Below are positions 5,653 to 51,791 of a stretch of 64,000 nucleotides of DNA, piece after piece. The translations under genes were made by a program, and so were the position numbers. How positions within the stretch are numbered: the first letter of the stretch is position 1; every line of letters starts with the position of its first letter. Source of the stretch: a virus; IMG/VR virus record IMGVR_UViG_3300027736_002225; one strand, 5' to 3'. The notes below the pieces were generated by a model. It ran no database searches. It saw nothing but the letters and a program-made list of their open reading frames with translations, and was not told the origin of the DNA.

Positions 5653-6237
5653 TTAAAGTTTCTCCACCTCAAACAAGGTATATTTAAATGAGGCAATTGC
5701 GGTAAAATATTCAACGCTTGCAGATGCAATATCAAAGTCTAAAGCTTCCAAGGACACAGGGAATATGTCTTTAAACATTATATTTACTTTAGGCGTATTT
5801 GTCGAGTCTAAAATGCACAAAGTTGCATCCGAGTATGCCAAAACTTCAGTAATTCCTTTAGAAGTTACTTTAAATGGAAATGCACTTGGCTTATTCGCAG
5901 TAAATGCGCCGAATTGGGTATAATCTTTTGGAAACCCCAATGCAACTAACCATTTATATATTTCCATATAGTTTGACATATCTTCTGCGATTAAAAATCT
6001 AATACTAAGATCTCCAAATTGCAGCTTGTCTCCAATGCGAGGAATATCGGTAAAGGGCGAGGGTTGAGATGCAAACCCTAAAGCCAATTGAGGTAAATTT
6101 GCAGATTGACAAGTAAACGATACATTTGGTATATCCTTTACAGAAAATCTGAAAGCGTTTGGCCTTAGATAGTCGTGAGTTGTTGGCAAATTATTTGCAT
6201 AATTTTGCTGAAGCACACTTATATTTGAAGTAAACAT
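5653..6237 (-). CDS. gp3: Tail tube terminator / tail completion protein gp3
   Basis: YLRPNAFRF, FTCQSANLP, IGDKLQFGDL, SDATLCIL; position downstream of gp23. Confidence 0.8.
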   Translation of the reverse strand: MFTSNISVLQQNYANNLPTTHDYLRPNAFRFSVKDIPNVSFTCQSANLPQLALGFASQPSPFTDIPRIGDKLQFGDLSIRFLIAEDMSNYMEIYKWLVALGFPKDYTQFGAFTANKPSAFPFKVTSKGITEVLAYSDATLCILDSTNTPKVNIMFKDIFPVSLEALDFDIASASVEYFTAIASFKYTLFEVEKL

Positions 6238-47551: not shown

Positions 47552-47811
47552 AGTGGCAGTTTGCCCCTTGGTTTCATATAATTTTGTTCCTCGGCCTCGT
47601 ATTGAATCTTATCCTTGAGGGACTTATTAATTAAGTTTGCAACAGATTCTACATCAATATCAATTTCGTTACAATATTGAATTACTGCATCCATGTAACT
47701 AATATGTTCCTTAGCAACAAGTTCTTCGATATACAATGAGAACTCGTTAGGCGATCTAAATCGTTTTGTAATAATTAAACTATCGGTTAAAATTTCGTTT
47801 TCTTGTATCAT
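47548..47811 (-). CDS. gp33: Late transcription coactivator gp33
   Basis: FSLYIEE, SYMDAVIQYC, LKDKIQYEA, KLPL motifs. Confidence 0.9.
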   Translation of the reverse strand: MIQENEILTDSLIITKRFRSPNEFSLYIEELVAKEHISYMDAVIQYCNEIDIDVESVANLINKSLKDKIQYEAEEQNYMKPRGKLPL

Positions 47812-48482
47812 TTTAATTCTGGAAATAAAATTTCGTCCATGAAGTTTTTAAAATTGGTTTCGTCCACACCTAGATTAACCATCATTGCTAATGTATGATG
47901 ATTCAACTTTTGATTAATACAATAATTGTTATAGGGGTCTATATAACTATTACTATTTCTCTCATTCCCTACATTATAAAGGAAATAATCTAAATTGTCT
48001 ATAGCAACGTTAATCAATTTATCCAATTCTTCTTCTGTACTAACATTTCCTGCCGCAAGCATTCCCGGGCTAAAAATCCGCTTTGCCCAATCTGGTAGTT
48101 CTCTTGGCTTAGTCCAATTTATAGATGACATCTTATCTTGATACCAATTATAAATTACACTATCGCCAGATTTAGAAAAATCATGGAATGCGCCAGTAAT
48201 CTTATTTGCTCCACATACCACATCAAATCCAAATATTGGAGCAGGGTCATTGAGATGCGGAAATACGGTCATGTGCATAACCCACATCTTTTTAGATTCT
48301 CTTGCATCTACAATTTCAATATGTGATCGTCGAAACTTATCAGATTTGAATAGATAATTTTTCCAAGTGAAATCAATATCAGAATGTTCATATTTACTAT
48401 CTATTGGTAAAATGTCACACTCTTTGAATCTATCAATAATTGATTCCGATAATGGAATCATCTTATCCCACACCATAGACAT
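47808..48482 (-). CDS. pcyX: Ferredoxin-dependent bilin reductase, PcyX/PcyA-like
   Basis: FRRSHIE, MH, PIFGFD, GAFHDFS, RELPDWA-IFS, QKLNHHT; coupled to heme oxygenase. Confidence 0.85.
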   Translation of the reverse strand: MSMVWDKMIPLSESIIDRFKECDILPIDSKYEHSDIDFTWKNYLFKSDKFRRSHIEIVDARESKKMWVMHMTVFPHLNDPAPIFGFDVVCGANKITGAFHDFSKSGDSVIYNWYQDKMSSINWTKPRELPDWAKRIFSPGMLAAGNVSTEEELDKLINVAIDNLDYFLYNVGNERNSNSYIDPYNNYCINQKLNHHTLAMMVNLGVDETNFKNFMDEILFPELK

Positions 48483-49006
48483 TAATTATATTCCTTAACC
48501 ATATTAATATTGTGGTCAAATGCAATGTTTGCTTCGTCTGCCATTTCAATAACTAGTTTAGATCTAACTTTACTAATTAATTCTTCTCTATTCTCAAACT
48601 TGTACATTTTTCCAGAACCAGGCACAAGTTTTGCAAGAGCCTGGCCACCAAATAAATCTCCCATATGACGAACATATACATGGGCCATTGCATCTTGTGC
48701 ATTGTCTATACCAAGTAAATAATTTACATAATCTACTGTAGATTTTTTAGGCGAATATAAAGTTGTAGGAGTGGTAAGCTCATTAATGTCATCTCTAATA
48801 TACGATGATCGTTTCAATTCCGGCATATCGTTAAATAAGCCAAATTTGTTTCCGACATCTTCTTCCAATACATGGTATATAAAACCAAGTTGAAATAAGT
48901 AATCTGCGTATTCTTCTCTTGTTACTGATTTTTTAAAGATAGCTTTAATAAACGGTTGCGTTTCTGCTTCTTTATGTTTTGCATGGGTTAGATCTTTTAG
49001 ACTCAT
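48482..49006 (-). CDS. hemO: Heme oxygenase
   Basis: LKDLTHAKHKEAE (proximal His), HVYVRHMGDLFGGQ, EANIAF motifs. Confidence 0.92.
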   Translation of the reverse strand: MSLKDLTHAKHKEAETQPFIKAIFKKSVTREEYADYLFQLGFIYHVLEEDVGNKFGLFNDMPELKRSSYIRDDINELTTPTTLYSPKKSTVDYVNYLLGIDNAQDAMAHVYVRHMGDLFGGQALAKLVPGSGKMYKFENREELISKVRSKLVIEMADEANIAFDHNINMVKEYN

Positions 49007-49918: not shown

Positions 49919-50356
49919 TTAGAAACTAAGTTTTACACCCGCAGTAACTCGGCTACCATTTTGTGCCTTGATAACATCTTGGCCAACTTGATAAGAGTAA
50001 TCTACAGTAGCGGATACTTTATTTGTTAGAGGTACCGAAGCACCAGCACCAACAATTACAGCATATCCATCTGGATCAACTTTGCTGTCAACAAATGCAC
50101 CGCTTCCTTTTACAGCAACTGATACGGGACCAATTTTTGTAAGAGTTTTAGAAGTACCTACACTATATGTGTCTGACGAAATATTACGAGTAAAGCCACC
50201 GGTTACATCCGCAACACCAATCTTACGACCGATAGTTACGCCCCAAACATTTTCGCTTGAGCTAATGTTAGTACCACCATTGATACCAACTTCTGTGGCC
50301 TGCGCTGCAGTTACTGCACTAATAAGTGCGGTTACAAGTACAAGTTTTTTAATCAA
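49919..50356 (-). CDS. Outer-membrane beta-barrel protein (OmpX/Ail/Lom-like size)
   Basis: Signal peptide ending AQA, alternating beta strands, C-terminal Phe; TTG start with AGGAG RBS. Confidence 0.75.
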   Translation of the reverse strand: MIKKLVLVTALISAVTAAQATEVGINGGTNISSSENVWGVTIGRKIGVADVTGGFTRNISSDTYSVGTSKTLTKIGPVSVAVKGSGAFVDSKVDPDGYAVIVGAGASVPLTNKVSATVDYSYQVGQDVIKAQNGSRVTAGVKLSF

Positions 50357-50381
50357 AATTTTCTCCTGTTGTTAAACATAT

Positions 50382-50680
50382 TGGTAGGTTATTCTGTTAC
50401 GAGGAAACCTACCGAAACCCTAAGCTAGCGTTTAGGCTGCTAATGCGAACAATTCGTCGTTTGCGTTTACGGTTTTTCTTCTTTTTACAAGGTTGCTCTT
50501 GTGCTGTCCACTCATTTACTTGTTGCCCTGTCGAAACTATGCAGGCCCATCGTATAAGCACTAATGGTTTGCCTGCACTCGGATGATTGAGTCGGTTTTA
50601 TGCAATAGTGCGTTATATGGTGGACCTGGGGGGATTCGCACCCCCGTCCAGAACACTTTTCTCTTTGCTTCATACAGCAA
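50382..50680 (-). ncRNA. ssrA: Circularly permuted (two-piece) tmRNA; tag peptide ANDELFALAA
   Basis: T-arm and CAGGTCCACCA end at 50618 precede the GGGCCTG 5' strand at 50548; G3:U70 pair; tag ORF at 50464-50432; self-complementary intervening segment. Outer ends approximate. Confidence 0.92.
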
Positions 50681-50685
50681 TAAAA

Positions 50686-50778
50686 ATATACTTAGGGAGA
50701 TCTGCCCTCCCGTACCCACTAAGAAGCGGGATCTTGTCTAATTGCACAGCCTAGCCGTGTCCGAGATCATAAGTATAT
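50686..50778 (-). ncRNA. Unclassified tRNA-like multi-stem RNA
   Basis: Closing stem ATATACTTA/TAAGTATAT enclosing three arms, one T-arm-like (GGGAG-GGCAGAT-CTCCC). Confidence 0.55.
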
Positions 50779-50781
50779 GTT

Positions 50782-51078
50782 TTATCGTTGATAACAATTT
50801 CTCTCGCGATAAATTTTACCATCCGGTGTTTGAATTTCTTTCCAGTCGGTACATACAGTTTGTGTCTGTTGTACAATTACCGGTTGCTGTTGTACAACCA
50901 CAGGTTGTGGTTGATTTTGGTTTGCAATTATTGCGCCGGCAATACCACCAATAATTAGTGGTGCTACCCAATCACTACGTTCAACAATAACTGTCCGTGG
51001 CTCCCAATGTCTGTGGTGCCATTGGGCGTTTGCTGAAAATGTAAATGCAAAAATTGCTAGAAAAAGTAGTTTTTTCAT
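50782..51078 (-). CDS. Exported hypothetical protein with Gly-zipper-like segment
   Basis: Signal peptide ending ANA; IIGGIAGAII segment. Confidence 0.7.
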   Translation of the reverse strand: MKKLLFLAIFAFTFSANAQWHHRHWEPRTVIVERSDWVAPLIIGGIAGAIIANQNQPQPVVVQQQPVIVQQTQTVCTDWKEIQTPDGKIYRERNCYQR

Positions 51079-51098
51079 TTTTCTCTCCTATTTTATAT

Positions 51099-51127
51099 AT
51101 TATAACAGAAATTTAGAAAAATGTCAA
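51099..51127 (-). promoter_or_regulatory. Early sigma70-type promoter
   Basis: TTGACA-17-TATAAT with extended TG. Confidence 0.85.
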
Positions 51128-51131
51128 GCGT

Positions 51132-51791
51132 TTATTGTCCATTTTCGTAAGAATCTCGACATTTTAGCAATTCCGCGACCCAATTATCACGTTTTTCGAT
51201 GAAAACTTGGGGAGAATCGCCTTCCACTGCTATTAACACCACTAATTTACTAATTGGAATGCCAGTTCTTTCCTCGTACATGATTGCATATGCCGCACAT
51301 TGCATAAAGTAGCTATGAATCCAATGTTTTTCTTTGCGCCTACCCGAAGTCTTGAAGTCAATGACTGCTAATTTGCCATCAAACTCTCCAATACAGTCAA
51401 CAGTCCCTGCTAGACGCAAGTGATCTGAGTACAATCTCTCTTCTTGAAGATGTATATTGTCAATTCGATGCAAATCATTAACAATGCTGTCAAATAATTC
51501 TTTTTGGAACATTGACATTTCTTGTATTGCATTCACATTGTTTAAATAATTTTCAACGTGTGTATGTAATTTAGTTCCTCGACTTGTAGCGGCTCGAGAA
51601 ATCTTATTTGCTTCCTCTTCGCCTACTTTTTTACGCCACTCAATAATTCCTTGTTTGCTTTGAGCACCAAGTATTGTAGTCACCGAAGGATATTTTTTAC
51701 CCTCCGGTGTTACGTAATGCCTTACACCACTTGGTAGCGTAATCTGCTCCAATTTTTCAAACTCTTTCACCTTAACATGATTAAATGTCAT
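51132..51791 (-). CDS. PD-(D/E)XK exonuclease (Cas4-like fold, T4-like core gene)
   Basis: YPSVTT, RGTKLH, AGTVDC, IDFKTS, QCAAYA motifs. Confidence 0.85.
   Translation of the reverse strand: MTFNHVKVKEFEKLEQITLPSGVRHYVTPEGKKYPSVTTILGAQSKQGIIEWRKKVGEEEANKISRAATSRGTKLHTHVENYLNNVNAIQEMSMFQKELFDSIVNDLHRIDNIHLQEERLYSDHLRLAGTVDCIGEFDGKLAVIDFKTSGRRKEKHWIHSYFMQCAAYAIMYEERTGIPISKLVVLIAVEGDSPQVFIEKRDNWVAELLKCRDSYENGQ

Follow-up and report, generated by a model that had tools for sequence, protein, structure and literature searches.

A Conserved tRNA-Shaped RNA Cassette beside Two-Piece tmRNA Genes of Uncultured T4-like Phages

Results and Discussion

The Locus and the Fold of the Element

The subject of this work is a 93-nucleotide (nt) element at positions 50686-50778 of a 64,000-nt stretch of viral DNA (IMG/VR record IMGVR_UViG_3300027736_002225), which we refer to at its full length as the window. 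The window is part of a T4-type myophage, with genes for gp32, PhoH, DNA ligase, portal, sheath, baseplate wedge and hub, and large terminase, and its guanine plus cytosine (GC) content is about 35%. The minus strand carries a circularly permuted, two-piece transfer-messenger RNA (tmRNA) gene, which ARAGORN calls as tmRNA* at 50341-50710 with the tag ANDELFALAA; in Rfam, RF04321 covers 50432-50679 and RF01850 covers 50373-50731. The element, hereafter the cassette, stands just ahead of the acceptor piece of this tmRNA. A reading made earlier from the sequence alone had described an unannotated tRNA-like cloverleaf here and had offered several functions for it, an interpretation that our results partly support. 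Our analysis confirms the 93 bases as a genuine RNA, conserved and folded, with the shape of a tRNA that has no anticodon.

Folded as the minus strand (50778→50686), the cassette gives a four-way junction in which a closing stem encloses three arms (ViennaRNA, minimum free energy -30.9 kcal/mol, z = -2.64), and all of the stems described in the sequence-only reading are present. The native fold energy is matched by 2 of 200 shuffles, which taken alone is modest evidence. The claim that this is a GC-richer island also holds, at 0.47 versus about 0.35-0.39 in the flanks. A covariance model trained on eight homologues gives the element 92.5 bits on the minus strand and 9.4 bits on the plus strand; the minus-strand match spans exactly 50686-50778, and it is the single copy within the window. 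Homologues beside phage tmRNA genes, which had been proposed as a check, were sought by scanning viral and metagenome contigs with fixed motifs rather than with the covariance model; 18 distinct ones were found, most of them as a tmRNA leader.

Covariation, which the sequence-only reading had named as a test, is strong. In the alignment of the 18 homologues, which was fitted to the model, standard pairs make up 99.2% of the pair cells over 29 pairs, and two-sided, compensatory changes occur in 14 of the 29 (7/9 in the closing stem, 1/4 in the outer stem of arm 1, 3/6 in its inner hairpin and 3/5 in arm 2). Arm 3 shows no covariation because its sequence is nearly invariant. The observed pairing and covariation values were reached by none of 500 column shuffles, and sliding the partners out of register lowers pairing to 22-47%. 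RNAalifold, given an independent plain MAFFT alignment, finds the closing stem, the inner hairpin, arm 2, and arm 3. The strand is set by two pairs, 22:32 (UG in 12 sequences and CG in 6) and 23:31 (GC in 9 and GU in 9): because their G·U pairs would be C·A mismatches on the plus strand, the element is read on the minus strand, that of the tmRNA, as had been argued.

These data bear directly on whether the cassette is a decaying tRNA pseudogene or a DNA-level repeat, such as a miniature inverted-repeat transposable element or an att scar, without RNA function. Its 9-base-pair (bp) terminal inverted repeats and its changes of site would suit such an origin, as would the loop of arm 2, which is 3-5 nt in most relatives and 7 nt, of the form CU-NNN-AA, in loci L137 (CUUUGAA) and L143 (CUUUUAA), where it hints at tRNA ancestry. 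Against this, compensatory changes keep four helices across lineages, the G·U pairs make sense on a single strand, each locus, the window included, has just one copy, and the motif is missing from the representative genomes, one per species, of 185,579 bacterial and archaeal species. We regard this explanation as largely refuted by the covariation and give it almost no weight.

Anatomy of the Cassette

The helix plan of the cassette matches the helix geometry of a tRNA (Table 1). Arms 1 and 2 abut, as do arm 3 and the 3′ strand of the closing stem, in both cases without a linker, and a 3-nt linker with an invariant final C precedes arm 3, itself 5 bp with a 7-nt loop and closed by G-C. The loop at the D position is large and conserved and carries an extra covarying hairpin. 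Across the family, the closing stem varies from 8 to 11 bp (9 bp in the window) and the whole cassette from 90 to 96 nt. Directly after the closing stem the window has UUUUA, and no CCA is encoded. The sequence-only reading had given arm 1 a 5-bp stem, GAUCU/AGAUC; the arm exists, but its outer stem is better read as 4 bp, AUCU/AGAU, with G11 and C49 ambiguous, and it covaries at pair 13:48 (A-U in 13 sequences, U-A in 5). Several unpaired stretches are near-invariant: the UG that links the closing stem to arm 1, both sides of the internal loop of arm 1 (GGGA and CAAUUAGAC(U)A), and the UAC ahead of arm 3; a variant internal loop occurs only in L149, the most distant member.

Table 1. Features of the Cassette and Its Surroundings in the Window
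Feature	Position	Strand	Remarks
Whole tRNA-like cassette, 93 nt	50686-50778	-	covariance-model match, fold, covariation
Closing (acceptor-like) stem, 5′ strand AUAUACUUA	50770-50778	-	pairs with 50686-50694; 7/9 pairs compensatory
Closing stem, 3′ strand UAAGUAUAU	50686-50694	-	abuts arm 3, zero linker
UG linker, closing stem to arm 1	50768-50769	-	
Arm 1 (D-arm position): 4-bp outer stem AUCU/AGAU, internal loop CGGA / CAAUUAGACA, inner hairpin	50731-50767	-	
Arm 1 inner hairpin CACGGC-UAG-GCUGUG	50745-50759	-	3 pairs with double changes
Arm 2 (anticodon-arm position), 6 bp, UCUU tetraloop	50715-50730	-	double changes in 3/5 modeled pairs
UAC linker and arm 3, T-arm-like hairpin GGGAG-GGCAGAU-CUCCC	50695-50714	-	invariant bar one G-C to G-U change
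UUUU linker (50682-50685), then tmRNA acceptor piece to CCA at 50618	50618-50685	-	boundary UUAUUGCUGUAUGAAGC
tmRNA intervening segment, 69 nt, plain stem-loop	50549-50617	-	
tmRNA coding piece, GGGCCUG start at 50548, tag ANDELFALAA*	50373-50548	-	ARAGORN, RF01850, RF04321
Upstream open reading frame (ORF) of 98 amino acids (aa), stop codon 3 nt before cassette	50782-51078	-	Pfam: no match; signal-peptide-like start
Perfect sigma-70-type promoter TTGACA-17-TATAAT, 12/12, with TG	51099-51127	-	ahead of 98-aa ORF

Arm 3 resembles the T arm of the neighboring tmRNA closely enough for the covariance model to cross-match the latter with 13.3 bits (ACGGGAG-UGAGAAU-CUCCC in the element versus ACGGGGG-UGCGAAU-CCCCC in the tmRNA). 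Its loop occurs in two forms, UGAGAAU/UGAAAAU and GGNRGAU, in which positions 1 and 5 switch jointly (U..A or G..G), and the genuine tmRNA T loops of the same phage group show two parallel forms, UGCGAAU and GGCGGUA/GGCAGUA. We note that the second tmRNA form, which is non-canonical, is found among the acceptor pieces of L140/L147, L143, and L137; these have GGCGGUA or GGCAGUA in place of U(U/G)CGAAU, with G..G instead of U..A at positions 1 and 5, as in arm 3 of the cassette.

Set beside a canonical tRNA (RF00005) or the tRNA-like domain (TLD) of tmRNA, the cassette shares the junction topology, the UG at positions 8-9, a 4-bp stem at the D position, a T-like arm of 5 bp with a 7-nt loop and the invariant C before the T stem. 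It differs from a canonical tRNA in its acceptor stem of 8-11 bp, in the lack of an anticodon loop in most members, in having no CCA, and in a greatly expanded D loop.

Comparison with Known RNA Families

The structure, strand, conservation and contexts of the cassette, as well as its lack of a match to a known family, are established by this analysis. With Rfam 15 at E ≤ 10, the interval 50675-50790 gives no tRNA (RF00005), tmRNA, ribozyme, or riboswitch match to the element on its strand, as the sequence-only reading had expected; the sole match at this threshold, to a Dictyostelium RNA on the opposite strand with 15.8 bits, is due to chance. The statement that the cassette is not a tRNA is likewise borne out. 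ARAGORN at default settings calls no tRNA in 13 cassette variants, and a 7-bp acceptor stem, a 7-nt anticodon loop (the loop of arm 2 is 4 nt in the window), and a discriminator plus CCA are all missing, while the T-like arm has the 5 bp, the 7-nt loop and the stacking on the acceptor-like stem of a T arm, with a non-canonical loop sequence. Relaxing the ARAGORN thresholds to 60-80% yields inconsistent His, Arg, Ser, and Stop calls whose anticodon stems contradict the covarying arm 1, and the class II tRNA that arises in this way, with arm 2 as the long variable arm, breaks the covarying outer stem of arm 1.

Other identities were considered and set aside. The cassette is not a part of the mature tmRNA, as RF04321 starts at 50679 and conservation in about 119 contigs begins at UUAUUGCUG, with unrelated DNA upstream; RF01850 reaches 50731 only via 50 unpaired, poorly aligned model columns with a promoter-like consensus. 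A micro-ORF of 10 codons (MISDTARLCN*), with its AUG at position 9 and its UAG in CAAUUAGAC, is out of frame in L137, L139, L130, and others; it is not coding, because one-nucleotide differences in loop length break the frame among relatives. An antisense target for the invariant loop is not evident either, the complement GUCUAAUUGC occurring in the window at the level of chance (5 matches versus 5.1 expected). A promoter-like TTATCA-17-TATGAT within the element (50794-50766, 9/12) we read as a coincidence, because its -10 is the conserved UAUGA of the junction and transcription would start inside the closing stem.

Could the cassette control transcription into the tmRNA as a riboswitch or attenuator? 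It is a structured leader with a U-run behind it, and in the marine phage Melnitz a glutamine riboswitch has been reported beside ssrA, a two-piece tmRNA gene, albeit at its 3′ end (PMC9004378). No glutamine riboswitch matches here, however, nor does any other riboswitch family of Rfam 15. The GC hairpin stands 9 nt from the U-run, so that there is no canonical terminator, and the scan for terminators returned none on the minus strand. Gating would, moreover, be senseless inside a tmRNA spacer or a tRNA array, where the same cassette occurs. We judge this role to be highly improbable.

A new small self-cleaving ribozyme that trims the neighboring RNAs is also very unlikely in our estimation, if by a hair less so. 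HDV-like theta ribozymes lie behind phage tRNAs, and the cassette, whose compact fold of several helices includes an internal loop and a junction that do not vary, is always sited where an RNA end must be made. On the other hand, no Rfam ribozyme family matches at E ≤ 10, neither a pseudoknot nor a second docking loop is evident, and tRNA mimicry explains the helix geometry more simply. We read the cassette as belonging to a family of small, tRNA-shaped phage RNAs that had not been catalogued before.

Its closest counterpart in architecture is T4 RNA C (species 1 RNA, rnaC), a small stable RNA of a T4-type phage whose gene, on the same strand as the tRNAs, stands at the end of their array. In its predicted fold, the closing stem encloses a long arm with interruptions, a second arm, and a T arm that lies directly against the 3′ strand. 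Like the cassette, RNA C is absent from Rfam, and its biological role is still unknown (PMC3014915). The cassette shares with it the tRNA-like multi-arm fold and the T4-type phage setting, and the L149 copy also lies within a tRNA array. There is no homology, however: the cassette model scores 9.8 bits (E 0.5) over rnaC, no better than over T4 tRNAs. RNA C is 139 nt long and has a canonical UUCGAAU T loop, whereas the cassette is 90-96 nt with a non-canonical T-like loop and is mostly tied to two-piece tmRNA genes. RNA C is thus an architectural and contextual analogue and not a family member.

The mascRNA/menRNA family (RF01684), tRNA-like RNAs that tRNA-end enzymes cut out, offers a second parallel, as does the principle of tRNA punctuation. 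The cassette, too, is cloverleaf-like, with acceptor-T stacking, a reduced anticodon arm and no encoded CCA, and it lies beside an RNA whose end it could define. The mascRNA model does not match the cassette, though, the known examples are eukaryotic, and processing of the cassette is our proposal.

Genomic Contexts

The carriers of the cassette are uncultured freshwater T4-like phages, and freshwater or river sites contain the phage of the window at 66-86% of the sampled words. An exact 37-mer of the window's tmRNA T arm is present in at least 119 IMG/VR contigs, and homology among these ∼119 contigs begins sharply at the tmRNA 5′ boundary UUAUUGCUGUAUGAAGC, upstream of which the sequences all differ. 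A promoter stands 7-9 nt upstream of the acceptor-piece start in most relatives, and only 4 of the first 119 tmRNA-bearing loci carry the cassette. A blastn search of 50330-50800 against GenBank phages returned only a 68-nt tmRNA match, to a Stenotrophomonas phage.

In the leader context, found in the window and in at least 11 other distinct loci (L125, L139, L060, L078, L120, L122, L123, L130, L138, and L140 among them), the cassette ends 4-5 U's before the acceptor-piece start; in L123 it is paired with a different tmRNA. At L060-type loci, 9 nt separate the closing stem from the end of a 12/12 promoter that has an extended -10, which puts the cassette at the very start of the transcript. 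In the spacer context (L128/L133, L137, and L143), it fills the interior of the tmRNA intervening segment in the layout CCA-(U/A)AA-cassette-UUCUGAU-GGG, and L128, L137, and L143 carry three tmRNAs quite unlike that of the window. The L149 copy belongs to an array of 17 tRNAs, on whose strand it precedes tRNA-Ile by 14 nt; the 12-kb stretch around it has no tmRNA call. The 3′ flank is U-rich in every context. Because it occurs in tmRNA leaders, in tmRNA spacers, and in a tRNA array, the cassette is a portable element of phage stable-RNA operons and not a dedicated tmRNA part.

Some of the loci carry further peculiarities. In L135, L145, and L146, just after the cassette, the acceptor piece is broken after its first ∼12 nt, between UUAUUGCUGUAU and UAAUUG..., by an ORF with a Shine-Dalgarno sequence (MKKTTLVCCSGCGKH...), which may be a mobile gene targeting the tmRNA gene; L135 has a complete tmRNA about 550 nt further on. 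Among species-representative contigs, the tmRNA 37-mer was found in one only, L142 (NZ_JBBAKG010000090.1, "MAG: Haliscomenobacter sp."), whose tmRNA spacer has a small ORF-like insert resembling those of phage contigs L028 and L031; this is probably phage DNA binned into a metagenome-assembled genome (MAG). The tmRNA-bearing phage contig L098 has a match to the group I intron family (RF00028, 51.2 bits) at 5670-5872 (-), close to its tRNA genes.

Proposed Excision and Function

The reading that we favor, and to which we give somewhat better than an even chance, is that a portable, tRNA-shaped cassette is cut out by tRNA-end enzymes and that the released RNA probably has a job of its own. A minus-strand transcript would run from the small secreted-protein ORF upstream through the cassette into the tmRNA acceptor piece. 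Its likely source, to judge from the sequence, is the promoter at 51099-51127, and since the terminator scan finds no minus-strand terminator-like site between the 98-aa ORF and the cassette, co-transcription is likely. In four metatranscriptome contig sets searched over 50300-51150, only the tmRNA pieces 50382-50551 and 50616-50686 are covered, by relatives that diverge upstream of ∼50683; the cassette itself has no coverage, which speaks neither for nor against its expression.

Host tRNA-end enzymes could then excise the cassette by virtue of its tRNA-like stack and elbow, with RNase P cutting at the 5′ edge of the closing stem and RNase Z/BN or RNase E cutting in the U-rich tract just past it. 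RNase Z prefers U-rich trailers, precursors of CCA-less tRNAs are cut by RNase Z/BN, and the CCA-less tRNAs of T4 depend on the host RNase BN. Cleavage on the 3′ side would, in the window, give the released tmRNA acceptor piece nearly the 5′ end that a promoter provides in relatives. In the spacer context, the 5′ cut would fall 2-3 nt after the CCA and leave a short tail for exonucleases, freeing the CCA end. A role in trans for the released RNA is likely on this model, because the unpaired core is invariant, some relatives give the cassette a dedicated promoter, and most carriers of the tmRNA do without the cassette.

Several observations weigh against this proposal. More than 100 contigs have the same tmRNA without the cassette and with a promoter in its place, so that the tmRNA can mature without it. 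The acceptor-like stem and the T-like arm stack to 13-16 bp, where 12 is canonical, A14 is missing from the D-like loop and the canonical UUCRA from the T-like loop, and neither the Rfam tRNA model nor default ARAGORN recognizes the cassette as a tRNA. A dedicated promoter that fires 2-3 nt before the cassette would make a role in processing only pointless, and recognition by RNase P and RNase Z leaves the strongly conserved internal loop unexplained. The sequence-only reading had suggested, more narrowly, that the cassette guides processing of the tmRNA 5′ end. Its position fits that idea, since it ends 4 U's before the acceptor start, where other phages place real tRNAs (a tRNA-Trp ending about 5-20 nt before it in L001, a tRNA-Arg about 25 nt before it in L018); the idea is weakened by the more than 100 tmRNA contigs that lack the cassette and by the copies in spacers and in a tRNA array.

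If the RNA had no life after excision, it could be a purely cis-acting leader or spacer module of the tmRNA precursor, a folding insulator or stabilizer that shields tmRNA folding from upstream mRNA or tmRNA ends, or the 5′ end from RNase E. The cassette always lies in parts of the precursor that are discarded, its closing stem at L060-type loci is 2-3 nt from the predicted transcript start, a place where stem-loops are known to stabilize RNAs, and in the window a translated ORF has its stop codon 3 nt upstream. A simple hairpin would suffice for this purpose, however, as it does in most spacers, and an invariant 15-nt unpaired core together with four covarying helices exceeds what insulation needs. 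The L149 copy, in its tRNA array with no tmRNA called nearby, does not fit either. We consider a purely cis-acting module unlikely, if still to be reckoned with.

A further alternative is a trans-acting mimic of tRNA or of the TLD, in which the released RNA binds a factor that reads the elbow and the acceptor and either tunes trans-translation or acts as a decoy; candidate partners are SmpB, EF-Tu, the CCA-adding enzyme, a tRNA-targeting defense nuclease, and a phage protein. The link to four different two-piece tmRNAs, the way the T-like arm mirrors tmRNA T arms, and the invariance of the unpaired core all speak for it. A "TLD-only" tmRNA remnant has been recorded in a phage, mycobacteriophage DS6A, and inhibition of tmRNA by TLD-only molecules, possibly through titration of SmpB, has been reported (PMC4131195). 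Yet the cassette lacks both G3:U70 and a CCA, none of the models detects a tmRNA-type D loop in it, and a decoy for SmpB would also strike the phage's own tmRNA. An anticodon-nuclease decoy, another of the functions put forward in the sequence-only reading, is unlikely because the loop of arm 2 is neither conserved nor anticodon-like in most members. Overall, we hold mimicry to be improbable, and we are just as skeptical of the broader notion that a trans-acting tRNA or TLD mimic, or a new ribozyme, is deliberately coupled to the phage's own tmRNA. Were that notion true, the RNA would be excised from the tmRNA precursor and go on to bind a translation or defense factor that reads the tRNA elbow, phage tmRNA genes would be expression slots for small ribosome-rescue or anti-defense effectors, and T4 RNA C, which has lacked an explanation for 50 years, would be another such molecule.

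The family adds to phage biology a well-supported, uncatalogued structured RNA that is tied to ribosome-rescue genes, and for structural work it provides a small four-way junction validated by covariation. Should tRNA-end enzymes cut the cassette, as we propose, bacterial viruses would supply a case in which tRNA-like punctuation sets the end of a different functional RNA; an action in trans might help to explain T4 RNA C and RNA D, a class that has long lacked an explanation.

tmRNA Spacers and Leaders as Cargo Slots

Among the 86 phage tmRNA genes in the loci analyzed (within L002-L143, e.g., L028, L012, L079, and L060) there are 61 distinct spacers of 25-284 nt, which share the frame (U/A)AAG...CUUU-UGAU ahead of GGG and have unrelated interiors. 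A Shine-Dalgarno sequence and an ORF of 23-87 aa are present in 19 of 60 unique spacers (60 here and 61 above, as the filters of the scripts differ by one locus); the Shine-Dalgarno is often UAAGGAG right after the CCA, and the conserved UGAU ahead of GGG often supplies the stop codon, UGA. Several of these ORFs encode hydrophobic peptides, one 86-aa ORF is Cys-rich, and a CCGRGCEGCVW motif recurs in the spacers of L037, L113, L101, and L108.

Three of the distinct spacers hold the cassette. Like other exchangeable tmRNA-spacer cassettes, it is helix-closed, occurs in some phages and is missing from close relatives, and is confined to uncultured aquatic phages, lying in the spacer of some tmRNA genes (L128, L137, and L143) and outside the spacer in others; it differs from them in its four-way, tRNA-shaped junction, in being a sequence family of its own, and in having the 5′ leader as its commonest site. 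Other tRNA-like modules, with canonical T arms, occupy the spacers of L120/L121/L124 (78 nt), L112, L114, and L063; in one example the T arm, AAGG-UUCAAGU-CCUU, is stacked on a closing stem of 8-10 bp. ARAGORN calls none of these modules a tRNA, and that of L121 has a weak, sub-threshold match to mascRNA (20.9 bits, E 0.11). A second, unrelated folded module of about 90 nt lies between the cassette (or the promoter) and the tmRNA in L049 (3532-3624, +) and L109, with a variant in L098; the L049-type module has a 9-bp closing stem, ACACUAUAG/CUAUAGUGU, followed by UUUUUA. The pattern supports the view that the discarded leader and spacer of phage two-piece tmRNA genes are slots for exchangeable cargo, comprising tRNA-like RNAs, folded RNAs, and mini-ORFs.

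Neighboring Genes in the Window

The tmRNA of the window sits between two ORFs for small proteins of secreted or outer-membrane type, the 98-aa ORF upstream (50782-51078, -) and a YfaZ-like beta-barrel ORF of 145 aa downstream (49919-50356, -; Pfam PF07437, E 7e-6). Further along the same strand, at 47808-49006, lies a pair of genes for heme oxygenase (PF01126) and a ferredoxin-dependent bilin reductase (PF05996), carried here by a T4-type phage that does not look like a cyanophage.

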